A stretch of 64,000 nt of DNA from Candidatus Poribacteria bacterium (GTDB lineage Bacteria; Poribacteria; WGA-4E; JAJDTR01): contig CBDCTK010000002.1 in the NCBI GenBank assembly GCA_965222225.1, positions 3,360,001-3,424,000 of the forward strand, read 5' to 3'. A program made the translations under genes and the position numbers. A model generated the notes under the pieces. That model made no database searches. It worked only from the letters and a program-made list of their open reading frames with translations, and had not been told where the DNA came from. Of this stretch, positions 11,761-63,937 are shown one piece after another. Every line of letters begins with the position of its first letter. Within the stretch, counting starts at the first letter, position 1.

Positions 11761-11796
11761 ATCAAGCGAACGGATAGTGAGAGCGATAGAGATTCC
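11761..11796 (+). repeat. 36-nt GA-hairpin element, single copy inside a GTAG REP-like hairpin (11751-11818)
   Basis: GTAGGCTGGG|ATCAAGCGAACGGATAGTGAGAGCGATAGAGATTCC|ATAGAACGCAGTGAAACCCAAC. Confidence 0.85.
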
Positions 11797-11893
11797 ATAG
11801 AACGCAGTGAAACCCAACTATTTAACTTCCGTTCCTACGCTCCAGTCGTCTAATCTATATACTGAGACTCAATCGCAATAATGAGAGGGTTCC

Positions 11894-12250
11894 ATGATTA
11901 CCGTTGCAAACCGAATCTATGTTGATCCAGCATACGCTGAAGCCTTCGAGGAGCGATTCTACCACCGCGCTCGACTCGTTGACGGAATGCCCGGATTCGT
12001 CTCTAACCAAGTCCTGCGTCCGGTTAATGATGGCGATCCCTACGTCGTATTTACGCTTTGGGATTCACGTAAAGATTTCGAGAACTGGGTGGAATCGGAT
12101 GAGTTCCGCAAAGGACACGCGCAATCCGGAACGCTTCCCAAAGAAGCCTTTACCGGATCGAACAAACTTGAACTTCACGAAGTTTTCTTGGATTCATCCC
12201 GTCCTGACCTCAAGGAGGAACCAAGTGGCGGTCCGTTCAATGTTCACTAA
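11894..12250 (+). CDS. ABM-family monooxygenase, IsdG/HmoA heme-degrading type
   Basis: MITVANRI...FEERF...MPGF...YVVFTLWDS..DF..WVESDEFRKGH. Confidence 0.8.
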   Translation: MITVANRIYVDPAYAEAFEERFYHRARLVDGMPGFVSNQVLRPVNDGDPYVVFTLWDSRKDFENWVESDEFRKGHAQSGTLPKEAFTGSNKLELHEVFLDSSRPDLKEEPSGGPFNVH

Positions 12251-12577
12251 CACAATACGGATGTCACACCGTGTGCTGATAGTGAGACTCATATTCATAA
12301 ATCGGCAGCAACAGAAAAGGCGAACCTATAGAAAAAGAGACAGCGTTGAACCCCCAAAGGTTCGCAGTGGGATCTTTGATCGTCAAGTCCCCGATTTCCG
12401 CTCGTATCTTTCAAGGTATAGGGCAACTTGAATGACCAAAAATGGCTTTGCCACCATTACTCAAACAGGCTCTAAACTGCCGAAATCCTGGTTGATTGGC
12501 AAAAAAGGTTTTGCCCTCTTGCAGGAAACAAAATATAATAGGGACTAACAACAATTGCTGGTTCCTATGAATTATAG

Positions 12578-18240: not shown

Positions 18241-18242
18241 GA

Positions 18243-20389: not shown

Positions 20390-20499
20390 TGCCCTTTGAG
20401 TTTACAAATCTCGTAGTTTCCCGAAAAGTCAAGGGACTGAAACTGAAAGTGTAACACACAATACATTTCTACAAATAAGAACCGGCACAATCCTGTAGG

Positions 20500-20535
20500 A
20501 TCAAAGGAGCGAATAGCGACTGCGATAGGGATCCC
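20500..20535 (+). repeat. 36-nt GA-hairpin element directly after GTAGG
   Basis: ATC AA AG GA GC GAATA GC GA CT GC GAT AGGGATCCC. Confidence 0.85.
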
Positions 20536-20609
20536 AGCGCGATCGATGATCGTCAAATCGTCGATTTCCCCTCTTACTGCGCACCAGCCTTTGAAAGCGT
20601 CGGCACGGG

Positions 20610-20715
20610 ATCAAACGAGTGAATAACGATCGACTGAGTGATGAACGAAGGATCAAGGGAATGGATAATGACCGCGATAGAGTTCCCATAGAAGATCCCG
20701 TGCGATAGAGATTTC
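20610..20715 (+). repeat. Triple-nested GA-hairpin elements
   Basis: Starts at 20610, 20629, 20652; innermost copy is complete (20652-20687), followed by the two outer 3' halves in reverse order. Confidence 0.88.
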
Positions 20716-20785
20716 ACGGGTAATAGTAAGTCAAATGCCCAAAAATGGCGCTACTATCTATTTTTCAAACAGGTTCTAAAGTCAT

Positions 20786-23700
20786 TCAACATGTCTGAAA
20801 CTGACAGAGATTTACTTCCCTCCACGTTACAAGGTGTTGCTTCAGGCTTCTTTTCAACCACTTGCGTTCGTACATTGTCACATGGTTTGCCGCGGCGTGC
20901 TGACGTGTTTGCTTGGCAAACTCGCGATTCGTGATAATAATCGGCTGAAAGATGGCGTTGTATCTTTCCTCATAAAACGACTTTGCCGCTAGAATCTCAT
21001 CCACAGCTTCATTTCCCGGTTTGCCCCCTTCTTTACGTTGTTTGACCTGTATTAGCAATCCGCTGGTTCCCTCTTGGCTATGGTAGGCAATGACATCTGC
21101 CCCTTTGTCACCGGAAAAGGGTGTTAATTCAACACGATATCCTTGGGCTTGAAAAAGGGTAGCAACGAAGGCCTCAAAGAATGCTGGATCGAGTGCGTCA
21201 GCATCTTCTATCGTCAGCGGTGGTCCATCTTGTGGTTGGGATCGCGTTCGTCGTAGTTCATCCAGAATCTCTGTGCGAGTAACTTCGGCTTGTTCAGTGG
21301 GAAACAGCGTGCCCTGCGAAAGCTGGCGTTTTCGTTCAAGAAGTTCGTGCAGAACCACATCAAACGTCGGAAACTTGGGATGCGTTGCCATTGGCAGGTA
21401 AATATGCACGGGGCGCGTTTGCCCTATTCGGTAGACTCGATCACTCGCCTGATCTTCTTTGGCGGGATTCCACCAACGGCTATAGTGAATGACATGGTTC
21501 GCTTCCGTGATATTGAGCCCAACGCCAGCGGCGAGCGGGGACATGATGATAGCGTTGAAACCCGGTATGGCTTGAAAACGATTAACAGCTTGTTGCCGAC
21601 TCATCTTCATCGAATTTCCCCGTTGTGCGCTACCGGGCGTGTCACCATTCACGATAGAGATGTTCGCCAATCCGAAACGTCCTTGAATGACACGCTTCAA
21701 TAGATGCTGTGTTTTTCGACGTTCCGCAAACAGAATCACCTTTTCTCCATCATCAGCAATCTTTTTGAGAAGCTTTACTGTCACGAGCAGTTTTGCCGAT
21801 TGTTCAATCAAGTCTGGTGTAGGAACTTCCTCCCATTCAGAATCGGCCAACAGTGGATGGTCGGATATGTCTCGCAACTGGTGAAGAACCCTCAAGATAC
21901 TGTTCGGAGATTCCGGGCCCGTTGATTCGCTCTCGTGTACGGATTGAAGCGTAGCCACATAGCGGTCTGCCTGATTCAAAGGCATCTCTAATTGGCACTC
22001 TTGAACATGGATGTGTTTTTCGGGGAGATCTTTTAGAATGTCGGTTTTCAGTCGTCTCTTGAAGTGAACCCCGATGCGCTCTCGAATCTGATCCCCAAGT
22101 GCGCGAATGTTGGTATCAGGATGCTTAAGCGGGCGGCAGAAGTCTCGATCGAAGTTTTTCGCGCTGTCAAGATATCCCGGCGCTACAAAATCCGTAATAC
22201 ACCACAAATCCATTAGCGAATTTTCAACGGGCGTTCCCGTCAACGCAAGCCGAAAATCGGTTTTAAGCGCTTTCACGGCATTGGTGACCAATGCCCCCGG
22301 TGTCTTGATCCGCTGCGCCTCATCAATCACAACAGCAGCCCAGGGAATCAACCCCAAGTCTAACTGAAAGTCGCGAACGGTCTCATACGTGGTGAGTACC
22401 AGCTTGGCAGTTCGCAGGCGGTCTACATCAAGTGCCCCGCGGCGGCGGCGAAGTTCCGAGATTCGTTCCGCGCCTTCAAGTTCAGGAATCTCGTGGTTGA
22501 TTTCGCGCTTGAAGGCTTGCAGTTTCTTTCCGTACAACGTGATGAAATCTAATGAGCCTCCGTCAAAAAACTTTGGATACTCTGCTTGCCAATTTTATAG
22601 GAGCGCAATGGGAGCAACTATCAGGTGCGGCCGTTGCAAGTGATATTTAGCGTGGTGCCACTCCAGAAAACAGAGCACTTGCAGCGTTTTGCCGAGTCCC
22701 ATGTCATCGGCGAGCAAACCGCCGGGGTATTTCTCCTCCCAAAGTTGCTGTGCCCATGCAATCCCCTCCTCTTGATGCGGCAGGAGTTCTACTTCCTGTT
22801 TTAAATTCGGCGAAGGTTCTAGTAGATGACGAAACGGTTCTTTGACCGGTGGATCGGGTGTTGGTTGGACGTAACCGGGATCCTCAATATTTTCCTCGAT
22901 AATCAAGACCGGGGGCTCCAGCTTTTCATCCGGGCACGGTGGTTTCTTTCGGCGTTTGAGTTGCTTTTCGATGAATGGAAGATATCGCTCAACCTCGGAA
23001 ACGGGGAGTTGCCCATCTTTCCACGTCACCATTTTTTTGCCGGTCCTGTTTGCCCGATCAATCAAACCTTTCAGTTCGTCTAGTTCTCGCTGATCTTTGA
23101 CTGGTATCTTCGTGCGCTTTCCATCCTTGTCTTCAACGATAATGCCGGGAATCCATTCACTTTTGTAGGGCGAAATGAACGGATAAACCTTTGGTTGGTA
23201 GACTCCGATCGCACGGACGCGATGACTGAAAGAAAGGGGCTCATCTGTAGTTGGATCCAGTTCAACAATATCCGGATTGAAGTATGCTTGTGGCTGTTTG
23301 GCAATCTCGTCCAGTTCCTCACGGGAGACGCGACGAAAACGCTTAACGGAATCTAGTGCCTCTCGCTGCTCTTTCCGGAAGAGCACACGGGTTCGCGCAC
23401 CTTCAGGTTGGGAGATGTTGTATACGGCCTCAGGGTTCGGAAACTTGTCAAAAACCTCTTCAAACTTCGCGCCGTCAACTCCATCTACGTCAGGGATAAT
23501 CTCAATTCCATCTCCCGCCTCACGCAGACGCAAGCGAACGGTTCTCGGCGCGACAACATTCTCCTGATTCAGATAACAATCGAGTGCAGCCCCAGTCTGT
23601 GTCGCCAATCCTTTTATCGTTGCAAACTTGAGTAGATTCGCTTCGAAAATTTTGTCGTGCGCTTCCTGTTTATTGAAGGCATCTAATTCCTCTAATAGTG

Positions 23701-24175
23701 AGAATTGTTCGCCTGTCAGGAGATATGCCCACTCTGCTGTCAAACGCAACACGCAGCCGATCCGTTCTGGATGCAAGGGTTTTCGATCCGGTTGTAGAAA
23801 CTGATAATTGTAACGAAACTCCGGCTCATTGAGTGTCCCGCGTGAACCAATCTCAAGGTCAAATGGATACGGCTCCGGCAAACCGAGCAAACTCTGTTCA
23901 ACGAAGTCGAGACGACACACTTCCTCACACGGCATGAGAATCTCCGTGTCTGAGGATTCTGCTTGACCATTATCGAGCAGTTCCTTAAGCAACACCCATT
24001 GTGCCTGAGCATGATAGGCATTCGCTGGCAGGTTCTGGGCGTGTTTGGTCACTGAAAGACTATCCAACGGAGCGGTAAACCGAATGCCTGTTGGAATTTC
24101 CTGCCAGTTGAATTGTGGCGGCTCAGATTTGCTCTTTCCAAACAGGTTTAACATAGCAATTACCCTTCCAACCAA
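20786..24175 (-). pseudogene. zorD: Zorya type I ZorD (SNF2 helicase/ATPase + C-terminal Mrr-like nuclease) split by one in-frame TAA at 22595-22597
   Basis: GGLLADDMGLGKT, VAPIALL*NWQAE, IDEAQRIK, LTGTPVEN, GVGLNI, WWNPAKEDQASDRVYRIGQ, then FEAFVA..F...GDKGADV...QVK; both ORFs are in the same frame. Confidence 0.88.
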
Positions 24176-25554
24176 TAACCTCGCACTGGATCAATTCCAA
24201 GTTCATCCGTGATCCACGATTCAAATTTTTCCTGCCAATCGTAGCCCTCTGATTTTCTGTGAATTACACGATCTCTAGCGAAATACATGTTACGTAACTC
24301 CGCCATGTTATACGCCAAATTACCCAAATCAAACGGACGCTCCGCGTTATCATAGACATAGCAAGCTCCCGCGGTGCTGAACTCAACAAAAGTATGGTCG
24401 CCCATCTGAATGATGAAGGCGTGTTGATCAGGATTCCCACCCGTCAACTTCGCGGGTCGTCGTTCCTCATAATATTTTAGGGCTTGTGGGTTGTTCCTGA
24501 TGAGGTTCTGTACATTGCCGCGCAGCACCGGCCGACAAAATGAAATTCGTTCAAGATACGCCAACCAAAAGGCTTTTCGGTAAGCAAATTTCCGGTCATT
24601 GCAGGCTTTCGCAACGACATCAAAGAAAAACCGAAGGTCTTCTTTTGTGATCCATCCCGTAAAAATTCGTCTCGCTTCATCGGAAACGCCACGCCAATTT
24701 GCAACGTTTCCCGTAATTCTCGGGTCTTTCCATTTTCCGAGAACGTAGGATTGAACTGGTTGCCGAAAATCATCGAAAGCGTCAATGCCAAGTCTTTCAA
24801 TAGTTCTCGACACGATAGCACGGCTTGCGTTGTCGTCTCCATGCACCTTAACAAATTCGATGATGTCTGCAACAGTCTCCCGATCAAGGCGATGGTTGCT
24901 CTCGAAGAGTTCTTCGACATACGCCATTCCAACGATACCGAAGTAACAATAGTCGTGCATTTGAGTGGGCAACTTAAGATGCGACCAAATATCCGATAAG
25001 TTCACCCCGTCCCGTAACAAACTCATTGCTAGCTGATTAGCTCCGCTCTCTTCACAATACCACGCTAAATTGGCTTTGAGGTTCTGAAAAAACTTCTGGC
25101 GTCCTTCGTAATTTGCGAGGTGTCTTCTGACAAACGCGCGCAACAACCCCGCTCCCCACGCATCCCATGCTCGCAGCAGGGCATTAAAAACGCCGTGCAA
25201 CTGGCGCATGCGGAACCGGTCTTCAATGAGTTGGAGCGCGTCGCGGAGCTCCGGTGTGTCCACAATCCGGTGAAGATTAACCTCGGAGTAGGTCAACGCC
25301 CACGCAAGCCGCCGGATGCGTCTAAGCGAGTCAAACTCGGTATCCAGCCTTCCAGTTCGGATGGCATTGAAGAAGAGGTGATAAATCTCACGCAAATCTT
25401 CCTTCGCGGGAATATTGCACATACTATTATGCTTCCTTTCTATTCCCTCCAAATCCGAAACTATCTTTGGTGGTATTGCAGTAGGCTTCGGCGCGCGACG
25501 AACGAACTCGTCCGCATCGAAATCGAATTGAAGCAATTCTCTGGCCGAATTCAT
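24160..25554 (-). CDS. zorC: Zorya ZorC (EH-signature domain protein)
   Basis: WKDPR...W, FF.......RKAFW..Y, FIIQMG..TFVEFS..GACY, H...WQ..F; lies between zorB and zorD. Confidence 0.85.
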   Translation of the reverse strand: MNSARELLQFDFDADEFVRRAPKPTAIPPKIVSDLEGIERKHNSMCNIPAKEDLREIYHLFFNAIRTGRLDTEFDSLRRIRRLAWALTYSEVNLHRIVDTPELRDALQLIEDRFRMRQLHGVFNALLRAWDAWGAGLLRAFVRRHLANYEGRQKFFQNLKANLAWYCEESGANQLAMSLLRDGVNLSDIWSHLKLPTQMHDYCYFGIVGMAYVEELFESNHRLDRETVADIIEFVKVHGDDNASRAIVSRTIERLGIDAFDDFRQPVQSYVLGKWKDPRITGNVANWRGVSDEARRIFTGWITKEDLRFFFDVVAKACNDRKFAYRKAFWLAYLERISFCRPVLRGNVQNLIRNNPQALKYYEERRPAKLTGGNPDQHAFIIQMGDHTFVEFSTAGACYVYDNAERPFDLGNLAYNMAELRNMYFARDRVIHRKSEGYDWQEKFESWITDELGIDPVRGYWLEG

Positions 25555-25576
25555 TTTACCTCCTGTGTACTCCTAT

Positions 25577-26299
25577 TCAAGGAGAACGTATTCCAGGTTC
25601 AATCTCCAATAATTTCTCCGCCGTCGGCGACACCATATCCCAATCCCGTAACCGAAACTGAAATTCGACGCGGCGGTTCTGGGCGCGCCCTTCTTCCGTA
25701 TCGTTAGGCGCAATCGGCTGGACGAAACTCCGCCCGTTTGCGGACAGTAATTTTTTCAAATCCTCCGCGTAACGAAACGCCCCAAACTCTTTTGCAAATA
25801 AATATGCGGCCACACTATTTGCGCGGCGAAGGCTCAGTCTGAGATTATACTCATACCCACCAACATTGTCCGTATGCCCCTCAATAATCACCTGTGCAAT
25901 ATGTTCCTTCACCAGGGGATCGGAGAGCAGAATCCCCACATATTGGGGAGTAAATTGTCGAAGGAACACCTTTCCCGTCTCCTTAAGTTCAGCTTTCCCG
26001 AAATCGAACAAAACGCCCTCAGTGATGCGGATTACCCCGGTGTCAGGGTCAACTTCAACATCAAAATCGGAAAGTTCTTGAAGTAATCGACTGATGAGTA
26101 GCTTTTTGATTCGTTCCCGGTCGTCAAGTAATTCTAATTCTCTTCGCTTTTCCTCCATCAGGTTTTCAAGCCGCAACATGACAAAAGAAAGCAGAAGCAC
26201 GAAAATCAGCAGTAACCCTGCCATCAAGTCACCCAACGATAGACTGAATGGGTTTTCGTCGGAAAGCGTCTTGGATTTCGGTGGTAATCTTCGCATCAC
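25577..26299 (-). CDS. zorB: Zorya ZorB (MotB/OmpA-like peptidoglycan-binding protein)
   Basis: TM helix SLGDLMAGLLLIF with conserved Asp; VLFDFG, IEGHTD, NLRLSLRRANSV, NRRVEFQF. Confidence 0.92.
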   Translation of the reverse strand: MMRRLPPKSKTLSDENPFSLSLGDLMAGLLLIFVLLLSFVMLRLENLMEEKRRELELLDDRERIKKLLISRLLQELSDFDVEVDPDTGVIRITEGVLFDFGKAELKETGKVFLRQFTPQYVGILLSDPLVKEHIAQVIIEGHTDNVGGYEYNLRLSLRRANSVAAYLFAKEFGAFRYAEDLKKLLSANGRSFVQPIAPNDTEEGRAQNRRVEFQFRLRDWDMVSPTAEKLLEIEPGIRSP

Positions 26300-28443
26300 C
26301 TATTGCCGGACATGGACGGTAGTCGATCAATCCGATCGTTCAACTCTTCAATATTATCACGTTGTTCTTGGATGCTTGCATCCAGTGACTGTACCGCACT
26401 GGCCAACTGAGTAGCTAACCGTGTGAGATAATCATTGATTGACTCACGGGTGGTTTCGGCGTACTCACTTAATCCTTTTTGAATCTCCGCGAATATATCC
26501 TTCAATTCATCCCGTATCTCAGGGAATTGTTCAAGGGTGTCATTAAGCATCCCGTTGAGTTGTCGAATTGTCTCACGATTCGCTGCGAGATAGTTCTTGT
26601 TTTCTTGATTAAACGCCTGGCTCGCTTGAGTCAACTGTTGACCCGCGGTTTCAAGGCGATTAGCGCCTAGCATCAACTGACTGGACAAAGTCTGGGTCGT
26701 CTCAATCATTTGGCTGACGCTTGTTACGGTTGTATTCATCTGTTCCAACATGTCGCGTCCTCTCGCGAGTGCTTCCTGCGAGTTAGCGATTTGAGCGTTG
26801 ATAGCTCTAATTTGATCGCCTTGTTGATTTAGTAGCGCGCTGACACTTTGCTCTCCTGCTTTAAGGATTGACTCAAGCCGTCCGGCTGATTGATCAACGA
26901 GTTGCCGCATTCGATCTGTTGACTCCGTAAAGGCTGCCGAAGTTTGCGAAGTGATGTTGCCGATAGCTTGCTGCTGCGTATCAAGGGTCGAAGTGAGTGC
27001 CTGTTGTAAGTCGGTAATTGCTGCTTCAAGCGTTTGGATGCTTTGATTAGAAACCGCCTCAATATCCGCCATCCGTCGATTCAACTGTTCGCCTGTCTGA
27101 TTTGCAGACGATTCCAATAACTCGCGCATCCGGGTTGTCATTGCCTCGGACTCTGTGGCATTTTGTGACGCAGTAGACGTGATTGATTCTTGCAATTGGG
27201 TAATTGTGCTTTGGAGCGCTTGAATACTCTGATTAGTTGCCTCTGACAGGCTGGACTGTTGTAGATCGACAGCGCTTTGAAATGCGTTGAGCATTCGGTC
27301 CATCAGGTTTTGTAATTGCCCAGTCTGTTCTTCGGATGTTGCGGACAATAATTGGCGACTGCCGTTAATCTGCTCCTGCACACCTGCCATCATGCTTGTC
27401 AACTGCTCGGGTAAAGTTGACAAACTTTCGCTTGCACTGCGGACAGTTTCCGCAAGCCCCTCCAATTGTGCAGTAGTTGACCCTGAGAGCGATTCATGGA
27501 ATTCTTCAACCAATCGTTGGATGGCATCTGTCGAAGATTCTTCCTTTTGTCGTTGCAATTCCTCTACAGCTTTGTTAAGGCTATCCAGACTCGGTGTCAA
27601 CTGTTCTGCCATCGCACTGCTGAAGGCTTCGGGGGCGTTGTGAAGTTCCTGAATGATTTCTTCGCGCCCCTGTGTCATCGCACTCTTAATCTCGTTTGCC
27701 AAATCTGTCGAGAATGATTTGAGCGCCGCTGTCTGTTGTGCGAGTTCGTCTTCTTGGCGAAACAAGATCGCTTCTTGTGTCGTCAGCGTGAACAACTTAT
27801 CGAGTGCGCGTTGTAGATTCGTGATGGCTTGACTTATCCGACCCATGCGCCGCTTTTCAAATAGATTGAACACAAGCGAAACAGACATTCCCCAAACGGA
27901 AGTCACAAATGCTGTTGATACACCCGATAGCAGCGTTTTGATAGCATCGCCAATTTCCTCAATCTCGGTAAAGTCAATCCCCGCAAAGGGTCTCAATCCC
28001 CAAACAAGCCCAACAAAGGTACCAAGAATTCCGAGTCCAACCAATAGGGCGGGCACGCTATTCCAAAACCTAAGGTTCAATTGTTGATCCAAGAGGCGGT
28101 CCTCGCCAAAGAAAAGTGATGAGTCGTCCGTTTTATATACAACTTCTGGGTCTTCACGAGGATGCTCAATTAGTGAATCCTCAAACTCCTGCCATGCTTC
28201 AGCGAGGTTATTGCGTTCAAAACTGATTTTCAAGTTGTGCTTAAATGATGGTTGAGCAGGTCTTTTGTATTTGTCCACCTCTTTGCTCAAGCTGTCAATT
28301 CGGCTCGCGCGACGAAAGGTTTTCCGCATTAAAATTATCGACAAGATTATAAAAGTCGAAAGGATTACAGAAATAAAACCGTCCATAATCTTATCGGTCT
28401 CGCCCCACCACCACGGGAGTAATAGATCAATAAATTCGCTCAT
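26296..28443 (-). CDS. zorA: Zorya ZorA (MotA/TolQ/ExbB-like membrane domain + long helical tail)
   Basis: PALLVGLGILGTFVGLVWGL...LLSGVSTAFVTSVWG followed by about 480 aa of Q/S/L-rich helical tail; overlaps zorB start. Confidence 0.92.
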   Translation of the reverse strand: MSEFIDLLLPWWWGETDKIMDGFISVILSTFIILSIILMRKTFRRASRIDSLSKEVDKYKRPAQPSFKHNLKISFERNNLAEAWQEFEDSLIEHPREDPEVVYKTDDSSLFFGEDRLLDQQLNLRFWNSVPALLVGLGILGTFVGLVWGLRPFAGIDFTEIEEIGDAIKTLLSGVSTAFVTSVWGMSVSLVFNLFEKRRMGRISQAITNLQRALDKLFTLTTQEAILFRQEDELAQQTAALKSFSTDLANEIKSAMTQGREEIIQELHNAPEAFSSAMAEQLTPSLDSLNKAVEELQRQKEESSTDAIQRLVEEFHESLSGSTTAQLEGLAETVRSASESLSTLPEQLTSMMAGVQEQINGSRQLLSATSEEQTGQLQNLMDRMLNAFQSAVDLQQSSLSEATNQSIQALQSTITQLQESITSTASQNATESEAMTTRMRELLESSANQTGEQLNRRMADIEAVSNQSIQTLEAAITDLQQALTSTLDTQQQAIGNITSQTSAAFTESTDRMRQLVDQSAGRLESILKAGEQSVSALLNQQGDQIRAINAQIANSQEALARGRDMLEQMNTTVTSVSQMIETTQTLSSQLMLGANRLETAGQQLTQASQAFNQENKNYLAANRETIRQLNGMLNDTLEQFPEIRDELKDIFAEIQKGLSEYAETTRESINDYLTRLATQLASAVQSLDASIQEQRDNIEELNDRIDRLPSMSGNR

Positions 28444-28477: not shown

Positions 28478-29842
28478 CTAAATCCGAGACTTCGCCTTGA
28501 GCTCAAGATACTTGTTCACCACTTCCATCGTCAACTGGTGCGCCGGAACATCAAGCGTGATGACGCCTCGACTCCGCAGAATCTCCAACATCGCCTGTTT
28601 CTCCTGCAGCAATCTCTCGGCAATTGCCCGTTGGTAGACTATTTTGGAACTCGTCGGCTTCTGTGTGGCGAGTGCGATGATGCCGGAGTCCGTCAACGTC
28701 ACACAGGCGATGAGGTGGTGTCTGGCGAGCGTCGTCACATAATGCGCCAGTCCTTCCGCCGCATCCCTGTCCAAGATATCCGTAAAAAGGATAACCAGCG
28801 CGCGTTTACGCTGCTTCGACGCCAAGAATTTGAAGGCGGTCTCGAAATCCGGCTCCACCGGATAAACCTGCAAGGCGTAGGTAGCTTCTAGCATGGCGAG
28901 GAATTGCTTTTTGCCCGGTTTGGGGTCTAGGTATCGGTGCACGGTGTCTGAAAAAGCGATTAAGCCCACCTTATCCCCTTTGAGTGTTGAAACGTAGCTT
29001 GTCATGAGGGTGGTGTTGATGGCGTAATCCAGTTTAATCATCGCTTGCCCTGAGTTCGACGCTGCATCCGGTGTGTCATCCTGTTCTTGCGCCTCTGTCA
29101 GAATCGGCGATGCCATCAGCCTGCCGGCGTCCAACATAATCACCACGTCCTGGCTGCGTTCTGTCTCAAACTCCCGGACAATCGGTTTTCGGTGTCTCGA
29201 AGTCGCCTTCCAATCGACGCGGCGGATGTCATCATCGGGTGTGTAATCACGCAGCCGCTCGAATTCCGTCCCCTCGCCAAATTGCCGTGAGTTTTTCAAT
29301 CCAAGTTGACCCAGCATCCCGCGTCTCACCAGCAATTCGTACTGTCGAATGGCGTGCAGGTTGGGATAAACCTTCACCTCTGCTGCCGCCTTGACCCGAC
29401 GTTGGCGGATAATCAGCCCCAAAATCCCCCAACACTGTACGTGGATGTCCCCAAAATGGTAAATGCCGCGGCGCGATGGCGTGAGTCGATAGACGACGTT
29501 TTCACCTTCGCCCGCATCCGCATAAATTTCGTGAATTACACGGTCAAACCGAAACGTCGGAGGAAAATCATCCTTCAGTCGCAACCGTAAACCATGGCGA
29601 GAACGGTTGATAACGCGCAGCGTCACGACGTTTTCCGCACCCAACGAGAACTTGGAGTTCATCAGGCGGGTAACCTCAACCCTTGTGAATAGCGGGGTTT
29701 TCACGTAATCGACGAGGCAAACGACCAACAGCAGCGTCAGATAGACGGCATCGACTACCAACAAATTGGGCGAAACCGAGTAAAGCATAATCGGAATCGC
29801 TGACGGCAACAGGAAGCCGAGAAGCCGTTTACTAAATCGCAT
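28478..29842 (-). CDS. DUF58 domain protein (MoxR partner)
   Basis: GEGTEFERLRDY.PDDD.RRVDWKATSR...VREFETERSQ.V.IMLD.GRLM. Confidence 0.92.
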   Translation of the reverse strand: MRFSKRLLGFLLPSAIPIMLYSVSPNLLVVDAVYLTLLLVVCLVDYVKTPLFTRVEVTRLMNSKFSLGAENVVTLRVINRSRHGLRLRLKDDFPPTFRFDRVIHEIYADAGEGENVVYRLTPSRRGIYHFGDIHVQCWGILGLIIRQRRVKAAAEVKVYPNLHAIRQYELLVRRGMLGQLGLKNSRQFGEGTEFERLRDYTPDDDIRRVDWKATSRHRKPIVREFETERSQDVVIMLDAGRLMASPILTEAQEQDDTPDAASNSGQAMIKLDYAINTTLMTSYVSTLKGDKVGLIAFSDTVHRYLDPKPGKKQFLAMLEATYALQVYPVEPDFETAFKFLASKQRKRALVILFTDILDRDAAEGLAHYVTTLARHHLIACVTLTDSGIIALATQKPTSSKIVYQRAIAERLLQEKQAMLEILRSRGVITLDVPAHQLTMEVVNKYLELKAKSRI

Positions 29843-29891
29843 GCGGGTTCCTACCTATTGTTTGAATCACGGATTAAACTGGTGGCACGAA

Positions 29892-30845
29892 CTAGCGCGG
29901 GATTTCCAATTCGGCGAGCAATCTCTCAATCACGTTGTCCGCGGACAGCCCCTCAATTTCCGCTTCCGGTTTCAGAAGCACCCGATGCCGATAGACATGC
30001 GGGGCTAAGCGCTTCACATCATCCGGCAAGATGTAACCCCGTCCCTGTATTGCCGCGTAGGTTTTGCACCCTAATAGCAGCGAGATTGACGCGCGCGGAC
30101 TGCCGCCCAAAATGAGGTCGTCCGAACTGCGCGAGGCTTCGGCAATATCCACAATGTAGTTGAAAATGGAATCCTCAACCGTGACCGCCTGAATCGCCGC
30201 TTGGCATTGCAGAAGTAAATCCCTATCAATGACACCTTCAACCCCGGCATCCGCAAGTTGAGAGGCATCGAAGCCGTTGTGATAGTTAATCAGCACCTGC
30301 TGCTCCATCTCTCGCCCCGGATAATCGACGCGCAACTTGAATAGAAATCGATCCAATTGGGCTTCGGGAAGCGGATAGGTGCCTTCGTATTCCACTGGAT
30401 TCTGCGTTGCCATTACCATAAACGGCGCAGCCAGTTCGTGGCGGACGCCGTCAATACTGACCTGCCGCTCCTCCATACATTCGAGGAGCGCCGATTGAGT
30501 CTTTGCCGGAGCACGGTTGATTTCATCTGCCAGCAAAACGTTGGTGAAAACCGGTCCCCGCTTTAGGTTGAATTGATGCGTCCCGAGATCATAAACGCTC
30601 GTCCCGACAATGTCCGATGGCATGAGATCGGGCGTGAATTGCACCCGGCTAAATTCACCCGACACCACCATCGCCAACGTTTTCGCAATGAGAGTTTTGG
30701 CAGTACCGGGGACACCTTCAAGCAGTACATGCCCGCCGGATAGGAAACCGACCACTACCAGTTCAAACAGTTCCTCCTGCCCGACGATGACCTTTCGGGT
30801 TTCCTGTTTCATTCTTTCAAATACGCCTTGAATTAAATCGGACAT
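29892..30845 (-). CDS. MoxR-family AAA+ ATPase
   Basis: [64 protein letters not shown]; AGGAGG RBS before ATG 30845. Confidence 0.95.
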
Positions 30846-30968
30846 AGTCCTCCTATTCTGAAACCGAGTTTTTCCTTGAAAACTCGGTTTCTTTTTCGCG
30901 CAACCGAGTTGGATGAGCAAACATCAACTCGTTGATTTCCCCTCTTCTCATTGCACATCCGGCGTGGG

Positions 30969-31038
30969 ATCAAAGGAACGAATAGATCAACCGAGCGAAT
31001 AGCGAGGACGATAGAGATCCCACTGCGATAGAGATCCC
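30969..31038 (+). repeat. Double-nested GA-hairpin elements
   Basis: Outer starts 30969, complete inner copy 30986-31021, outer 3' half ACTGCGATAGAGATCCC 31022-31038. Confidence 0.88.
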
Positions 31039-31124
31039 TAAAGCCCCAATTTATCGGGATTGGCATTATGCTTTTTTAATCGGCGCACTCCCCACCTTCT
31101 CGGTCTGATTGACGAATCCAGACC

Positions 31125-31221
31125 ATCAATTGAGCGAATAGCGAGTGATCAAGCGACCGGCAAGGAAGCGCGATAGAGCTCCGATAGAAAATCCCATGCG
31201 ATAGAGTTCCCATAGAGATCC
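31125..31221 (+). repeat. Nested GA-hairpin cluster with two 5' ends and four 3' ends
   Basis: Starts 31125 and 31148; 3' tails end at about 31183, 31195, 31211, 31221; followed by REP arm TTCCAGCCCGACCCTAC. Confidence 0.8.
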
Positions 31222-31278
31222 TTTCCAGCCCGACCCTACGAGAGATCCCACTTAGCCAATCCTAATCCGCGTAATCCG

Positions 31279-31314
31279 ATCAAGCGAGTGGTTAACGAGT
31301 GCGATAGAGATCCC
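31279..31314 (+). repeat. 36-nt GA-hairpin element inside a TAATCCG(C)G tandem repeat
   Basis: TAATCCGCGTAATCCG|ATCAAGCGAGTGGTTAACGAGTGCGATAGAGATCCC|GTAATCCGCG. Confidence 0.85.
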
Positions 31315-31477
31315 GTAATCCGCGATTCAGACAATTACTAAAATTCGCAAGCCTAGACCTTATTCTTTTAGCGAATGAACCACTTAATGTTCCAGCAGAT
31401 ATTGCCAAGACTCATCGTTAGCATAGACGATTTAGTCCACGTACGTCATCCGCTACGGTGGGTACGGACAGCTTCCC

Positions 31478-32248
31478 TCAAAACATCCGGGGGAAATCCG
31501 AAATGCTGTCAACAACCCATGTCGGATTTGCAACCGGGTTTTCCAACCGACTGGGTTGGAACTTCCCGGTCCTGACTAAAACGCTTCTCATCCCCATTCT
31601 TTCGGCACCCAGGATGTCGGTTGTGATTTCATCGCCAACCATAATAACTTCGTTAGGCGAAAACTGGAGACTATCAAGTGCAATTTCGAAAAAGAGCTTA
31701 CTCGGTTTGCCCATTACCTTCGCCGTCTTGGTTGAAGCATATTCGAGAAGCGCTACAAATGCGCCGCAATCCAACATAATACCTTCCGGCGAGACCCAAT
31801 AGGGTGACCTTTGTAACGCAATGAGTTCGGCGCCACCCATTAAAAACCGAAAGGCATGATTCAAGGAGCGAAAATCGAACCTGTCTCCATAGTCGCCAAC
31901 GACAACAAAATCGGGAGAATCATTATCTGTTGGTATCTCGTTGAAAAACGCTTTGACGAAATCATCCACCATAAAGTAGCAACGCGCTCGGGGTTGTGAA
32001 CGCAAATAAACGAGACAAGCGTAGCTCGCGTTGAAAATTTCACTTTCATGGACGTCAAACCCCAAGGTTCGCATTTGTTCATGGAGCATTTTCGGGGTCT
32101 TGGCTGTGATATTTGTAAGAAAACGAATCTGATACCCTTTCTCGCGCAGATATTTTACAGTTCGAACTGCCTTGGGGTAAGGTTCATTCTTGAAATAGAG
32201 CGTGCCATCCAGGTCGATTAGGAAAGCCTTGGGGTTTGCTGTTGTCAT
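31478..32248 (-). CDS. HAD-IIA hydrolase (LHPP-like)
   Basis: Own GGAGG RBS and ATG; FLIDLDGTL, FLTN, GKPS..FF, MVGDEITTDILGA, VRTGKF. Confidence 0.9.
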   Translation of the reverse strand: MTTANPKAFLIDLDGTLYFKNEPYPKAVRTVKYLREKGYQIRFLTNITAKTPKMLHEQMRTLGFDVHESEIFNASYACLVYLRSQPRARCYFMVDDFVKAFFNEIPTDNDSPDFVVVGDYGDRFDFRSLNHAFRFLMGGAELIALQRSPYWVSPEGIMLDCGAFVALLEYASTKTAKVMGKPSKLFFEIALDSLQFSPNEVIMVGDEITTDILGAERMGMRSVLVRTGKFQPSRLENPVANPTWVVDSISDFPRMF

Positions 32249-32360
32249 ACCTCCCTCCTCATCTTGTGCACGATCTTGTGCACGCGTGCGCAAGTCATTC
32301 CGCCAACGGGCTGCGCAGATTCCTTGGCAGAAAGATCCTCGGAGCAAACCCTTTCGTGCA

Positions 32361-33199: not shown

Positions 33200-33252
33200 T
33201 CCTTCCGTTCTCCCATCCTTCCAATCTTCCGTTGCAACGCAATTGAATTAAT

Positions 33253-36073: not shown

Positions 36074-36476
36074 TTTCTCTCCCCATGTACTCAAATGGCT
36101 TGACTCACGCGGCAACAAGCGGCCCCGCGTTGGTAGACAGGGCATCTTGCCCTGCCACGCTAGGTGGTCACGATCGGGAGGCGCTCCTACAGGGATTGGA
36201 ACGTAGAAACAAGTAATAAACTGCTCTGCCGCGAGCCTGTAGTTACTCAATTGCACAAGTCCTATGGTAAATCACAGTTGATCCATGACGCACACATACA
36301 GGTGCAATAATAGCACACCCCACTACGATTGTAAAGAGCCGGCGAGAAAGTCTTGGTTGTCGTCTTCACTGAACAATCCGCCCGATACACCATCTATCTT
36401 GTCGAGGCAAGTCCTGCCTAGGGCGTGTAGACATTCATGTGAGTTGTGTCCACAATTCGCCGATAAATACCCAATC

Positions 36477-36607
36477 GTAGGGGCGAGGTCCCCTCGCCCA
36501 ATGACTTGAGAAACGCAACCCCTACGGCCTCTGCTCCGCCTACTCCCGTTTCCCGCTTCCGTTGGGTTGAGCATTGGGTTTCACGGTTCCCGTTCAACCC
36601 AACCTAC
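36477..36607. repeat. GTAG/CTAC REP-like hairpins
   Basis: GTAGGGGCGAGGTCCCCTCGCCC...AACCCCTAC, and TTGGGTTTCAC...TTCAACCCAACCTAC on the opposite strand. Confidence 0.7.
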
Positions 36608-36656: not shown

Positions 36657-36799
36657 ATCAGGCGACTGGACAAGGAGCGATCAAACGAGTGGACAGCGAG
36701 TGCGATAGAGATCCCCCTCAAACGAGTGGATAACGATCAACCGACTGAATAAGGAGGGCGATAGCAAATCCCATGCGATAGAAATCCCCTATAGATTCC
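36657..36799 (+). repeat. Cluster of four GA-hairpin elements, nested and tandem, after GTAGGGTACGCACTGCG
   Basis: Starts 36657, 36680, 36717, 36736; complete copies 36680-36715 and 36736-36772. Confidence 0.85.
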
Positions 36800-39778: not shown

Positions 39779-39831
39779 ATCAACCGAATGAACAGATCAA
39801 GCGACTGAATAAGGAGCGCGATTGGGATCCA
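39779..39831 (+). repeat. Partial plus complete GA-hairpin element after hairpin GGTCTGGATTGGCAAATCCAGACC
   Basis: Starts 39779 and 39796; inner ATC AA GC GA CT GAATA AG GA GC GC GAT TGGGATCC. Confidence 0.8.
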
Positions 39832-40977: not shown

Positions 40978-41094
40978 AAATTACTCCCTTGGCAAAAGAA
41001 AAAATGATAGCGGTGTTCTTCTGAGATTGTACCATCTTCCCGAAAATTGTGATAAGGAATCTACCCGAGCGCTAATACCGAATTAATAACAATT

Positions 41095-50606: not shown

Positions 50607-50669
50607 ATCAAGCGACTGAACAAGGAGCGCGATAGAAATCCCATAGCAAATCCCGTGCGATAGAGATTC
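50607..50669 (+). repeat. GA-hairpin element plus two extra 3' halves inside a GTAG...GCCCCGTAC REP-like hairpin
   Basis: Complete copy 50607-50642, then ATAGCAAATCCC and GTGCGATAGAGATTC. Confidence 0.82.
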
Positions 50670-50819: not shown

Positions 50820-51069
50820 TATAGTCATTGCAACTAAGAATTACACATGTGTTTATTAACATACCCAAATCCCCACCCATTCCCGTAGGTCGGGATCAAC
50901 CGAACGAATAGTGAGGGATCAAGGGAATGAAAAATGACCGCGATAGAGTTCCCATAGAGATCCCTTCCAGCCCGACCCGCTCAATGGGAAACGTCGCAAA
51001 CCGGGAGATTGTGAGCTAAGTCGAGTCAATCGACGCTCATATGTGTAAATATAAATGCAAACGACTATA
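50820..51069. mobile_element. Putative MITE with 32-bp imperfect terminal inverted repeats (TA ends)
   Basis: TATAGTCATTGCAACTAAGAATTACACATGTG versus reverse complement of 51038-51069, TATAGTCGTTTGCATTTATATTTACACATATG (23/32 match by hand). Confidence 0.55.
50895..50964 (+). repeat. Double-nested GA-hairpin elements splitting the hairpin GTAGGTCGGG(C)TTCCAGCCCGAC
   Basis: Outer starts 50895, inner 50918-50953, outer tail ATAGAGATCCC 50954-50964. Confidence 0.88.
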
Positions 51070-51094: not shown

Positions 51095-51149
51095 ATCAAG
51101 CGAGTGAATAACAATCAACCGACCGGATAGGGAGTGCGATAGAGATCTT
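51095..51149 (+). repeat. Partial plus complete GA-hairpin element
   Basis: Starts 51095 and 51114. Confidence 0.8.
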
Positions 51150-58815: not shown

Positions 58816-58887
58816 ATCAAGCGAGTGGACAACGATCAAGCGAACGGATAGTGAGCGCGATAGCAAATCCCGTGCGATAGAAATCCC
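58816..58887 (+). repeat. Double-nested GA-hairpin elements inside a GTTGGG...AACCCAAC REP-like hairpin
   Basis: Outer starts 58816, inner 58835-58871, outer 3' half GTGCGATAGAAATCCC 58872-58887. Confidence 0.88.
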
Positions 58888-61508: not shown

Positions 61509-63404
61509 TCAAGGAAAGAAACGATACCCATATCCCCCGACAATCTCACGTATGATTGTCCATAAACCGCCGATAACGTGCTGGCCCAAGATTACCCCCA
61601 AGAAAAACGGCACCATCTTGCGATAGAGTTGAATGCCCCCGAACTTCAGTATCACCCACTTCGTTAACCACGCAAGAAAGACCGAAAACCACATGGCGCT
61701 CATCACCCAACCGCAAGCCACCGCATACCCGACAGGATGAAACGGAAACCCGACAAATCGATGATGCAGCACCGTAAATAGCGCCGTGATGCCAGCCCCC
61801 ACACCGACCTCCCGAAGCATGAGATCGTTACCCTCGCCCGGGTTTTGCAACCATACTTCGAGCCGACGAAGCGCTTCCGACCCTAGATTGTATCGGGTTC
61901 CCGTGCCGTGACGATACATGGCGTCCGTGTACGCCCAAAAACCCGCGACCGTGCCGACAATGGAAGCCACAATCATCGCCGCCAGAAATCGTCGACTCGA
62001 AGCTCCCACAGACTGGGCAAGCTTGAAACCTTCTAGCTGATGCCCAACCGGGTGAGACCGATACGCCCGGCTCATCCAATAGAGCCTGGTGAACAACGCG
62101 ATATTGCGCGCCCCCGTACGGCGTGCCCCGAGTCCGTTCAGGATGAGTTGCTCGGGACCTATCCACTCGGCATCGTGCGCTGGCGGTCCGGTCTCCGCAC
62201 GGATTCGGGCAATCGCAATCATGTAGAGAAAATAGATTAGAAGAAAAAGTGCCGCAATCCCCACAGACATGCCAACGTAGTACAGCGCCAACACCAAAAT
62301 ACAAATGCCAGCCACCATCCCGACTAGCGCTGTTCGGTAGCGCATTGGCTCGTTCGCCTCGGCTCCTTCCGGGGGGTTACCGCGAATTCCCCAGCCCAGT
62401 ACCTGCTTGAGGTATTTGCGGCTTGCCCACAATGCGAGAATTGTAAGTACCATCCACGCGCCCGATGTCTGATAGCTCCGATACGGTCCTGGCGTATCCC
62501 AGACACCAATCGCTCGCCGAAAGATGAGTTCCGCCTTCCAGAATAGATGGAAAAACCACGCCGAAAACGAGAGATTCACCGGTAGAAAGTAGACCAACCC
62601 AATCACGAAAGGGTACACTGCCACCGGAGTCCAGCCAATAGCATTCCACGGCTTTGCCGTGAACAGCGACGCAGGGTCGTAGACAATTTTGAAACTCGGA
62701 ATAACGGGAAAAAGCCCGTGCAAGCCGTTGATAACATCTATGCTGCCGGTCAAGATAAATCCAATCCACAGAGCCCGATTCGAGAGTAGTCCTATGCCGC
62801 CTCTCGCCAGTTCCAGCGGCAACTGGATGACCGGGTAGGACAGTTTCTCGTTTTCCGTCCACTGCTTTCTGATGATAGCGTTCATACACAGCAGAACGAA
62901 GAGGAGTACGACCAAGAATCCGCCCCAAAACACCACGGGAAGTAACCACGCACTCAAATTCCTGTCACTGTAAAGCGTGGTTTCCCCTTTCTGGAAGGCG
63001 ATTAAAGCTCTCTCATCATATACGGTAAGCCATTGAGGGATATGCCGTCCGAACAGGACTGCCCACTCGTTTTCCGGCGTTGCGCCCCACAGAGATGTCA
63101 GCGTTGGAACCATGACATTCATCAGGTCATGTCCAAAGATGCCGGTGCCAATCGACAGCATCACATACACAATTAGGAGTTCGCTAGGTTGGAAAGCAAT
63201 CTGCGGAGCGGCTTTCTTCAGCAGTGCGTTCAGAATCGCCAGAACAAAGATGCTGAACGTCACGTTATAGAAAAGCGTGAAAAGCGTAGAATAGACGGCG
63301 GGATGGAGCGACTCCGCGTGCATTAGCCAGTAGAGGTTGATCGGTATCAATAGCGCTCCCAGAATCAGGGCGCGATAGAACGACATCTTCCTCTCTGTTT
63401 GCAA
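61509..63404 (-). CDS. DUF6785/DUF6784-like polytopic membrane protein (paralog of 41095..43065)
   Basis: ATPENEW, RKQW.E.EKL.YP.IQLP, RIRAETGPP, RSHP..HQLEGFK, FPFHPVGY. Confidence 0.75.
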   Translation of the reverse strand: MQTERKMSFYRALILGALLIPINLYWLMHAESLHPAVYSTLFTLFYNVTFSIFVLAILNALLKKAAPQIAFQPSELLIVYVMLSIGTGIFGHDLMNVMVPTLTSLWGATPENEWAVLFGRHIPQWLTVYDERALIAFQKGETTLYSDRNLSAWLLPVVFWGGFLVVLLFVLLCMNAIIRKQWTENEKLSYPVIQLPLELARGGIGLLSNRALWIGFILTGSIDVINGLHGLFPVIPSFKIVYDPASLFTAKPWNAIGWTPVAVYPFVIGLVYFLPVNLSFSAWFFHLFWKAELIFRRAIGVWDTPGPYRSYQTSGAWMVLTILALWASRKYLKQVLGWGIRGNPPEGAEANEPMRYRTALVGMVAGICILVLALYYVGMSVGIAALFLLIYFLYMIAIARIRAETGPPAHDAEWIGPEQLILNGLGARRTGARNIALFTRLYWMSRAYRSHPVGHQLEGFKLAQSVGASSRRFLAAMIVASIVGTVAGFWAYTDAMYRHGTGTRYNLGSEALRRLEVWLQNPGEGNDLMLREVGVGAGITALFTVLHHRFVGFPFHPVGYAVACGWVMSAMWFSVFLAWLTKWVILKFGGIQLYRKMVPFFLGVILGQHVIGGLWTIIREIVGGYGYRFFP

Positions 63405-63527
63405 AGGCGTCGAAGCTCCTCAAGTGTGAATTGGAAAGGGGGACATGTCTCTCACGATTCACGTGGGATGGTGTATGATTGGGCATCCTGAAATTCATCA
63501 GCGGCTGCCAGCTCCGTTAAACTCGTG

Positions 63528-63724
63528 TCAAGCGACAACGGATGCTTCTACGTGCGACTCACGGTGTTTGTCACCCCGGAAAACTGGTGCACCTGTATGA
63601 CACTCAATGTCGCTTGTGCAAGCGCCCCACGCGTCTGCTATCCGAAATGCCGACCTAACATTGACGGGGGCTTGCACATCCTGTACGATAAAAGCCAGTT
63701 TTCTTTCTGGCGCTTCCGCCTGCT
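63528..63724 (-). pseudogene. Possible SpoU/TrmH methyltransferase fragment
   Basis: LAFIVQDVQAPVNVRSAFRIADA resembles TrmH motif 1; the rest is missing and the 5' end abuts a MITE-like end. Confidence 0.35.
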
Positions 63725-63937
63725 TAGAGCTTGTTTGAACATCCATTTTTGTAGCGCTATTCGTCTCAAAACCAAGGTTTTTGTCAGCGTTTTTGTAGGG
63801 TGTGCACTGCGCACCAGCCTTTAGAAGCCCCAGCGGGGATCGAGCGAACGGATAGTGAGTGCGATAGAGATCTCACAGATAATTGCACTCGAAATGCCCA
63901 AAAATGGCTTTTCCATCTATTTTTCAAACAGGATCTT
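63725..63937. mobile_element. Putative MITE with IS5-like terminal inverted repeats, containing a REP-like hairpin and one GA-hairpin element
   Basis: Left TAGAGCTTGTTTGAA, right TTCAAACAGGATCTT; related right ends at about 12430-12475 and 20733-20778. Confidence 0.55.
63839..63874 (+). repeat. 36-nt GA-hairpin element, single copy
   Basis: ATCGAGCGAACGGATAGTGAGTGCGATAGAGATCTC. Confidence 0.85.

Follow-up and report, generated by a model that had tools for sequence, protein, structure and literature searches.

The 64,000-nucleotide stretch analyzed here, which we call the window, spans positions 3,360,001 to 3,424,000 of contig CBDCTK010000002.1 in a two-contig assembly (GCA_965222225.1) of a Candidatus Poribacteria bacterium, the contig being 5.64 Mb long with a G+C content of 50%. 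The regions between its genes contain dispersed copies of a repeat unit of 36 nucleotides (nt), ATCAA-xx-GA-yy-GNNNA-y'y'-GA-x'x'-GCGAT-AGAGATCCC, in which the primed and unprimed letters pair with each other as an outer (x) and an inner (y) stem. We refer to this unit as the mini-element, to the source genome as G000, to its contig as C2 and to its closest relative as G019. The ends of the unit, ATCAA...ATCCC, are exact, being defined by filled versus empty versions of host repeats, and a 37-nt tail variant is also present. A search of the window with a 27-nt core pattern, allowing up to three mismatches, recovered 18 matches, as against a mean of 0.76 and a largest value of 4 in shuffled sequences. 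Fourteen of these have zero or one mismatch, all 14 lying on the + strand in eight intergenic regions; among the matches with three mismatches, that at 39779 is the 5' half of a copy, and those at 17963 (-), 46412 (-) and 48113 (+) are taken as chance. A search for the 5' half (ATCAANNGANNG, up to one mismatch) gave 56 matches on the + and 33 on the - strand, chance ones included. Twenty-four 5'-half starts fall in repeat loci (Table 1), 14 of them being full cores with zero or one mismatch and 10 the 5' parts of copies interrupted by another copy, and the 12-mer of the tail has 14 matches in the window, all on the + strand (shuffle mean 0.23). An earlier note on this DNA, made from the sequence alone, had counted 24 starts at 13 intergenic loci; this count is exact, with every start on the + strand, and the seven pairs of outer and inner stems that it quoted all read as stated.

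Evidence that the mini-element has moved comes from host sequences that are found both with and without it. In REP-A, a hairpin-forming repetitive extragenic palindrome (REP) of the GTAG type, 71 empty copies read GTAGGGTGCG-CA-CTGCGCACC and 15 copies have the 36-mer replacing CA, and at a second site in the same repeat it replaces one C. Similarly, in REP-C (GTAGGCGGGG-CAT-CTTGCCCCGC) the letters CAT stand where filled copies have the 36-mer, which is also found within a REP-B-type hairpin flanking a Y1 gene and within the REPs of two RAYT genes. A second line of evidence is provided by 400 kb of G019, which is ~92-96% identical to G000 over syntenic genes. This segment holds 58 copies, 13 of which can be placed in G000; five are common to both genomes, and three face empty G000 sites holding one, two or three other letters, of which one lies in unique sequence and another at the syntenic place in the window near 36488. 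One further copy is single in G019 and holds two nested copies in G000. In the reverse direction, 64 of 974 G000 copies could be placed, with 26 present in G019 and 13 facing gaps of 0-3 letters. Alignment of two intergenic regions of the window with G019 gave large messy indels and no clean single-copy differences.

The mini-element also inserts into itself: 55 of 435 complete copies were assigned as nested in another copy, after G22 (26 copies), G11 (11), G18 (8) or elsewhere (10), with 0-3 letters of the outer copy missing. The stacks of 5' halves and of 3' tails that had been noticed on first inspection of the window are accounted for by this nesting. A further host is a CRISPR array at G000:C2:2705500-2707800 (locus L205, 5500-7800), which adjoins cas1 (TIGR00287, 225 bits) and consists of 12 repeats of 37 nt (GTAGCAACCATTGCC...GGACTGAAAG), eight of them intact. 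In three to four of the 12 repeats, 200-1000 nt of mini-elements interrupt the sequence at one and the same point; those starting at 5796, 6078 and 7307 of the locus are split after ...GATGAAAAG, with mini-elements in both orientations. In addition, the repeat at 7748 lacks its 3' part, and the loop region of the CRISPR repeat recurs as a 12-nt direct repeat on both sides of one of the inserts.

At simple sites there is no target duplication; instead 0-3 target letters are replaced, and the right junction is looser than the left. The left flank of 196 solitary copies is mostly GSG, with G at -1 in 91%, C or G at -2 in 90% and G at -3 in 73%. Complementary flanks of at least 5 bp, as expected of hairpin-loop targets, are seen in 15.3% of these solitary copies versus 2.7% of controls, which is an enrichment and not a rule, so that hairpin loops were rejected as the exclusive target. 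A target palindrome, GGGATCCC, considered by analogy with the insertion of the cyanobacterial repeat SDR5 in HIP1, was likewise dropped, as it has 69 occurrences against 86 expected and is absent from the empty sites. The filled and empty sites, the nested copies and the copies in REPs and CRISPR repeats bear out the proposal that this is a very small non-autonomous element that has moved, and its reading as a mobile element is well supported.

In the whole of G000 there are 721 exact cores, representing 293 distinct sequences, and 1106 cores with up to two mismatches, against 2 in a reversed-sequence control; chance is excluded as the origin of the window and genome matches. We surveyed its distribution in 151 genomes of the phylum, in all of which a backward-pattern control gave 0 matches. 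All nine genomes of the genus of G000 carry 477-1104 copies, and all four genomes of one genus from another family carry 148-171; in the 38 and 57 genomes of two other genera no match was found, four genomes have 1-2 copies each, and 133 of the 151 are without a match. Thus, among the genomes searched, the mini-element is confined to two genera, in two families, of Candidatus Poribacteria. One genome of an otherwise element-free genus, G127, has 17-21 copies, all of them on four of its ~130 contigs (C72, C83, C91 and C116); its interpretation as a recently invaded genome was rejected, as these contigs are probably mis-binned from the element-rich genus. Among the matches listed for public sequences all 80 loci with the motif come from Candidatus Poribacteria assemblies. 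A viral contig collection gave 0 matches, and 12 stretches recovered from a metagenome contig collection all have only 0-3 of the four pairs and no tail and are taken as chance. Rfam gave 0 matches over the whole window at the gathering score and 0 at E-values up to 1 for 30900-31400. Hence the impression that this is not a described family holds for Rfam, and the literature searched shows no such repeat linked to Poribacteria.

To characterize the fold we used an anchored set defined by ATCAA-N17-GCGATAG only, with the inner positions left free, which has 809 matches in the genome. The spacing is fixed, with these 809 matches at 17 nt versus 2-7 at 15, 16, 18 or 19 nt. The GA/GA and G..A positions, none of which the search required, are 94-99% conserved in this set (G 94.4%, A 98.5%, G 97.8%, A 98.6%, G 98.0% and A 97.8%), and so are near-invariant as had been claimed. 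The four variable pairs of the 809 copies amount to 3236 cells, of which 2769 are Watson-Crick, 343 G:T, 41 A:C and 83 other. Covariation was assessed by aligning 105 distinct copies, which come from several species: nine lie in the window and 96 in loci of other Poribacteria assemblies. Of the 735 cells of this alignment 97.1% are paired, versus 79.7% in column shuffles, and 153 are changed on both sides, versus 28.1 in shuffles, with 0 of 500 shuffles reaching either value; when the partner is slid by 1-3 columns, pairing falls to 12-49%. The statement that the variable dinucleotides change together and keep pairing is therefore upheld. The stems are combinatorial, with eight outer and six inner types and 54 combinations, and the linkage between the two stems is low (0.53 bit versus 1.9 bits within a stem). 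The further claim that selection acts on structure rather than sequence does not stand, given that variation is confined to the eight stem letters and the remaining 28 of the 36 are nearly constant. The possibility that the unit acts as its own splint, with the 3' CCC pairing with the GSG flank, is unsupported, since flank and tail show no covariation.

The large excess of G:T (343) over A:C (41) indicates that pairing is selected on the strand as written, i.e. the GA strand. As this excess is alike on either replication strand (96:10 and 208:20, ~8-10 to 1), it does not reflect a mutational skew and is a property of that strand, which bears out the strand specificity proposed at first. An A is hardly ever seen immediately 5' of either GA, and a T hardly ever immediately 3' of it; a pyrimidine-GA-purine context of this kind favours sheared tandem G.A pairs. 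Tandem GA-AG steps are described in PMC8163305 as stacking very strongly in DNA.

With respect to genomic placement, 839 of 974 copies (86%) lie outside crude open reading frames (ORFs), which cover 82% of the contig. Where genes lie in tandem, 307 of the copies between them are in sense and 263 in antisense orientation, and hence transcription does not set the orientation. Orientation is patchy along the chromosome, with 358 of 542 neighbouring clusters agreeing versus 51% expected and runs of up to 29 clusters, which explains why all window copies lie on the + strand. We compared orientation with GC skew in 50-kb windows, with the mini-elements masked and using single-orientation clusters. 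The GA strand is on the negative-skew (C-rich) strand in 379 of 543 clusters (Fisher 3.6e-20), a bias for which gene-strand bias is no explanation; in a circular-shift test that respects the patchiness, 0 of 2000 shifts are as extreme (observed -215, null standard deviation (sd) 47, ~4.7 sd). The same bias is seen in copies with GT[AG]G upstream (326:139) and without it (338:171), and is shared by the empty REP-A copies (45:20). Because genes prefer the G-rich strand (r 0.4-0.5) we take that strand to be the leading one. Hence the GA, or folding, strand is mostly on the C-rich and presumably lagging strand, i.e. the template of the leading strand. A bias to one replication strand implies a property at the level of DNA and suggests that single-stranded DNA at the fork is involved. 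Its origin may lie in the insertion step or in the loss of those copies that expose their folding strand on the lagging-strand template; the second of these patterns is shown by the attC sites of chromosomal integrons.

The explanation that we favour, and to which we give a somewhat better than even chance, is that of a family of 36-nt non-autonomous mobile mini-elements that would move by a single-stranded-DNA, fork-coupled mechanism with an enzyme acting in trans. It is hosted by several unrelated sequences, and GTAG-type REPs, CRISPR repeats and its own copies often hold it in the loop or at the 3' shoulder; its 36 nt puts it among the smallest mobile elements known. The form that is copied and recognized would be the single-stranded GA strand, folded into 3 bp, an A.C/A.G step, 2 bp, the tandem G.A, another 2 bp and a loop closed by G..A, with a tail of 9 nt behind it. 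Given the link between orientation and replication strand, the single-stranded DNA of the fork is a likelier source of this form than RNA. Cutting and joining would be performed by a trans-acting protein encoded elsewhere, for which the prime suspects would be Y1 HUH enzymes (a RAYT-like or the subclass-1.2-like gene), none of them tied to the mini-element.

As the earlier note had stated, no enzyme for the mini-element is encoded in the window. In the whole genome there are five Y1_Tnp (PF01797) matches, namely one subclass-1.2-like gene and four RAYT-like genes or remnants; none of the five is a canonical IS200-type TnpA (no search for TnpB was made). Mini-elements pointing inward stand on both sides of two of the five. 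The subclass-1.2-like gene (G000:C2:3080258-3080728) encodes 157 aa with the motifs DHIHIL and YIKNQEAHH, and fits subclass 1.2 in the Y1 table of PMC6006769, in which no REP is named for this subclass. Its conserved brackets are inverted arrays of a different REP, AAGCCCCAGCGGGGCGACAGGTGTATAG (29 loci in six genera; L098-L127), which holds the mini-element in the latter's own genus only as an insertion and not as a conserved flank. The occurrence of this gene with inverted AAGCCCCAGCGGGGCGACAGGTGTATAG arrays in every Poribacteria genus sampled constitutes a REPtron-like layout. Of the HUH/RAYT-type transposase and the reverse transcriptase that had been put forward as candidates, the first stands insofar as Y1 and RAYT genes exist elsewhere in the genome, each having its own REP and none following the distribution of the mini-element. 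The second fell away, the only RVT_1 match in the genome (G000:C2:4499560-4501572, - strand) being a 670-aa AbiA-type defence reverse transcriptase (PADLOC AbiA, 254.8 bits). Also rejected were Cas1 beside the invaded CRISPR array, which has close orthologues in many element-free genomes and was not found in two carriers, and a seven-copy tyrosine recombinase, whose family occurs in 63 of 151 genomes. The latter protein, of 315 aa, is encoded at G000:C2:460255-461199 and six other places, five of the seven copies having at least 83% identity, and at two places a 383-aa ORF of unassigned function adjoins it.

A number of these and other results weigh against the fork-coupled, trans-enzyme explanation. 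No tested enzyme co-distributes with the mini-element, and in a comparison of five carrier genomes no Y1 subfamily was common to all. The subclass-1.2-like Y1 was rejected as the specific partner, as it occurs in 94 of 151 genomes, including genera that lack the mini-element, and has different REP flanks; RAYT #3 and #4 each have their own GTAG-REPs. Standard energy models, with DNA or RNA parameters, do not predict the stable hairpin that had been proposed: with DNA parameters it is never the minimum (z-scores of +0.5 to +1.3), and with RNA parameters it is the minimum in two of four copies, with z-scores of -0.94 to +0.97 that are no better than shuffles. The proposed fold is never predicted on the complement, and the models may lack tandem-GA bonuses for DNA; we read the fold as weak, probably requiring non-canonical steps, a protein, or both. 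The replacement of 0-3 letters is unlike a clean IS200/IS605 cut-and-join. Active strands of IS608-type elements lie on the lagging-strand template, and the strand bias observed here is opposite to this orientation. That bias depends on leading and lagging strands assigned from GC skew and gene-strand bias, without a mapped origin, and in the 400 kb of G019 the skew association has the same direction but is weak (14:9 versus 6:8). Finally, many of the filled/empty pairs in the reverse comparison are paralogous host repeats and not orthologous sites, and hitch-hiking accounts for part of the copy number, the most frequent core (50 copies) residing in one composite host repeat.

Among the alternatives, one that we regard as unlikely is that the mini-element is an ordinary REP, whose hairpin and upstream GT[AG]G tag form the cognate substrate of one RAYT (Y1 HUH) enzyme and spread as a REP or REPIN. 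GT[AG]G is found within 30 nt upstream in 59% of the 196 solitary copies versus 18% of control sites, with distance peaks at 1, 5 and 6 nt, and at G000:C2:1578380-1578600 there is a tandem array of 38-nt units of GTAGG, core and TCTT. The inward-pointing copies on both sides of two of the five Y1 matches and the strand bias shared with REP-A would also suit a REP. Further, the REP families described in PMC3733652 include ones with alternative complementary stems, with unpaired GA or G.A mismatches, and some inserted in other palindromes. However, the GT[AG]G is part of host REPs, which are also found without the insert, as in the 71 REP-A copies, and 41% of the solitary copies have none within 30 nt. 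Comparison of genera shows other REPs as the conserved flanks of the Y1 genes, the mini-element being an insertion in these, and no Y1 subfamily is present in all carriers. Nor is there a REPIN layout, since neighbours within 400 nt comprise 255 direct against 72 inverted pairs (52 convergent and 20 divergent) whose spacing is not fixed.

More speculatively, and with only slight confidence, we consider that the 36-mer may live as a hyperparasite on hairpin repeats and spread along an undescribed insertion route, with a free single-stranded copy of the GA strand, or copy-choice on it, entering the nascent lagging strand at pauses after the G-rich step in a hairpin loop, and with either no dedicated transposase or only a Y1 HUH enzyme in trans. 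If this were true and the small dispersed repeats (SDRs) of cyanobacteria worked likewise, the outcome would be a general class of structure-coded mobile DNA units shorter than 40 nt.

Movement via a small RNA copy, returned to DNA by reverse transcription or RNA-templated repair, a route reportedly proposed for the cyanobacterial SDRs, appears improbable. The tolerance of wobbles of the G:U type, the agreement of RNA parameters with the proposed fold in two of four copies and never in the complement, and an imprecise 3' junction (0-3 letters lost) that resembles template-primed copying are all compatible with such a route. Yet the sole RVT_1 match is the AbiA-type defence protein, orientation is unrelated to neighbouring transcription, and it is instead tied to the replication strand. 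RNA data were available as contigs of two metatranscriptome runs, considered together with two other runs over 29500-41000 of the window. In these, transcript starts and ends are not visible, genes and repeat loci are covered alike at low depth, and the summed depth of the repeat only reflects copy number, so that they are neutral on transcription.

It is very doubtful that the 36-mer is not itself mobile, being instead a cis-acting site (for binding of a nucleoid or replication protein, or structural punctuation) that is kept by selection and multiplied by duplication of host repeats. Such a site would account for the near-invariance of 28 of 36 letters, the strongly extragenic location, the replication-strand bias, if it were linked to replication, and the part of the copy number that is due to hitch-hiking. 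It is contradicted by the occurrence of the identical 36-mer in unique sequence, in CRISPR repeats and in five or more host repeats that are unrelated to one another, by matching empty sites for several of these host repeats and for the unique sequence, by copies nested in copies, by copy sets that are not the same in genomes ~93% identical and by a patchy taxonomic spread, the two carrier genera belonging to different families. An artefact of assembly, adapters or binning, as the mis-binned look of the four G127 contigs might suggest, has a negligible probability, the repeat being present in long- and short-read assemblies of at least 10 Poribacteria records from different submitters and in contigs of four runs from three independent studies over the window loci, with diverse copies in unique flanks.

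Because it lacks defining features of the SDRs, the REPs and the derivatives of IS200/IS605, we file the mini-element as a very small structured mobile repeat that is a member of no named family, the closest kinds being SDR and REP. The repeats SDR1-8 of heterocystous cyanobacteria, described by Elhai in 2008, are reportedly 21-27 nt long, and SDR4-6 are said to keep a common secondary structure through compensatory changes. SDRs are also said to nest and to insert within other repeats, SDR5 entering between letters 3 and 4 of HIP1. The SDRs and the mini-element are both very small dispersed repeats well under 100 nt whose structure is kept by compensatory changes and whose mover is unnamed, and both occur in other repeats and nested in their own copies while being confined to one coherent group of genomes. 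They differ in length and host, with 36 (37) nt in Candidatus Poribacteria as opposed to 21-27 nt in cyanobacteria. Unlike SDR5, which targets HIP1, the mini-element has no single palindromic target, only a left G/GSG with 0-3 letters replaced. We know of no report of a replication-strand bias for SDRs. The SDRs are cited in PMC5861425, PMC4390886 and PMC13756078, the last of which gives SDR5 as 21 nucleotides.

With the REP/REPIN-RAYT systems the mini-element shares an extragenic location, a size of 20-40 nt, hairpin formation, hundreds of copies, alternative complementary stems and a strand bias equal to that of REP-A, a bona fide GTAG-REP of G000; with 839 of 974 copies extragenic and 721-1106 copies in all, it is indeed a short extragenic palindromic repeat in high copy number. 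It differs in that it has no integral GT[AG]G tag (80 of the 196 solitary copies have none within 30 nt upstream), does not appear to be the conserved flank of any Y1 gene and parasitizes REPs themselves. Its stems are only 2-3 bp long and are broken by fixed non-canonical steps, and unlike in REPINs its inverted pairs have no preferred spacing. The IS200/IS605 elements and PATEs resemble it in the absence of target duplication, the insertion 3' of a short motif, a strand-specific imperfect hairpin close to the end and a link to replication direction. In contrast to them it is far smaller, has one hairpin in place of separate left and right ends and loses 0-3 target letters; there is only G/GSG on its left and no conserved tetra- or pentanucleotide as in PATEs, and its bias is towards the strand opposite to that of IS608. 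A likeness to attC sites lies in the presumed recognition of a folded single strand, in stems that vary as geometry and unpaired letters are kept and in an orientation relative to replication that, for attC as well, is said to matter. The mini-element differs from them in lacking any context of integron integrase or cassettes and in being much shorter and dispersed rather than arrayed. A miniature inverted-repeat transposable element of the DDE type was rejected, as simple sites have no target duplication and the only inverted ends are (GGG)ATC/GATCCC, with GGG outside the inserted unit.

To our knowledge, mobile repeats of under 40 nt are almost undocumented, and the movement of the cyanobacterial SDRs has, as far as we know, been without a settled mechanism since 2008. 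The mini-element, of which 13 or more genomes (several being closed) hold ~1000 copies each, is rich material on movement of the SDR type, and its exact unit, insertion signature, strand-specific fold and replication-strand bias make the mechanism directly testable. Through the invasion of REPs and CRISPR repeats by a smaller element, this uncultured symbiont of sponges shows genomic parasitism at a second level. In practical terms, copies of the mini-element break short-read assemblies and can inactivate CRISPR units.

Table 1. Loci of the mini-element in the window, with the 24 5'-half starts and one empty target
Positions	Strand	5'-half starts	Feature	Remark
11761..11796	+	11761	Single full 36-nt copy; outer stem GC:GA (mismatch-bearing), inner stem AC:GT; preceded by CTGTAGGCTGGG	
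20500..20535	+	20500	Single full copy, AG:CT / GC:GC; preceded by CCTGTAGG	
20610..20715	+	20610, 20629, 20652	Nested cluster: outer 5' parts from 20610 and 20629, inner full copy 20652-20687, resumed outer tails ATAGAAGATCCC and GTGCGATAGAGATTTC	Nesting rule from genome-wide copies
30969..31038	+	30969, 30986	Outer copy (5' part 30969, tail 31022-31038) interrupted by full inner copy 30986-31021	30986 copy: A for G at unit position 23
31125..31221	+	31125, 31148	5' part 31125, copy from 31148 (GC:GC / CC:GG), then three stacked 3' tails	31148 copy: AA in place of second GA
31279..31314	+	31279	Single full copy within a TAATCCG-type host repeat	
36470..36510	+		Empty target: REP hairpin GTAGGGGCGAGG-T-CCCCTCGCCC near 36488 (range approximate); G019 has the mini-element in the loop at the syntenic place	G000 3396488/3396491 = window 36488/36491
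36657..36788	+	36657, 36680, 36717, 36736	Cluster: 5' part 36657, full copy 36680-36715, 5' part 36717, full copy 36736-36772 (37-nt tail variant), resumed tail 36773-36788	~140 nt of the cluster missing in G019
39779..39831	+	39779, 39796	5' part 39779, then copy 39796 with degenerate tail TGGGATCCA	
50607..50669	+	50607	Full copy 50607-50642 and two more tails, flanked by GTAGGCGGC and TTTTGCCCCG (REP-C-like arms)	
50895..50964	+	50895, 50918	Outer copy (5' part 50895, tail 50954-50964) interrupted after G22 by full inner copy 50918-50953; arms GTAGGTCGGG and CCCGACC around the whole	
51095..51149	+	51095, 51114	5' part 51095, then full copy 51114-51149	
58816..58887	+	58816, 58835	Outer copy (5' part 58816, tail 58872-58887) interrupted after G18 by inner copy 58835-58871; arms GTGGGTTGGG and CCCAAC around the whole	
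63839..63874	+	63839	Single copy (ATCGA variant) in a REP-B-type hairpin, AAGCCCCAGCGGGG and ACAGATAAT on its two sides	

Other repeat families nest and co-occur with the mini-element genome-wide, for example at 63780-63960 and 20560-20790 of the window. They include the GTAG-type REPs REP-A (GTAGGGTGCGCACTGCGCACC) and REP-C (GTAGGCGGGGCATCTTGCCCCGC), the REPs of RAYT #3 and #4, and a composite repeat that extends from ...CCTGTTTGAAAAGTACA to ...GTAGCAGCCAACAATGAAAACATG, the end motifs of which have 68 and 41 matches with up to two mismatches. The tandem array with the 38-nt period, in which the core of each unit runs to GCGATAG, is a chimera of a GTAG tag and the mini-element. Just upstream of the copy at 20500, at ~20415-20445, there is a lone stretch like the 3' part of the CRISPR repeat (...GTAGTTTCCCGAAAAGTCAAGGGACTGAAAC). 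The - strand of the window from 20786 to 28443 encodes a Zorya-like anti-phage gene set, with a match to a ZorA subfamily (150.9 bits, above the cut-off) and to the C-terminal part of a ZorD-like helicase (337 bits, below the equivalog cut-off). Finally, the intergenic segment 39680-39752, just upstream of the copy at 39779, is subject to strain variation, 71 nt being swapped for 30 other letters in one contig of each of the four runs.

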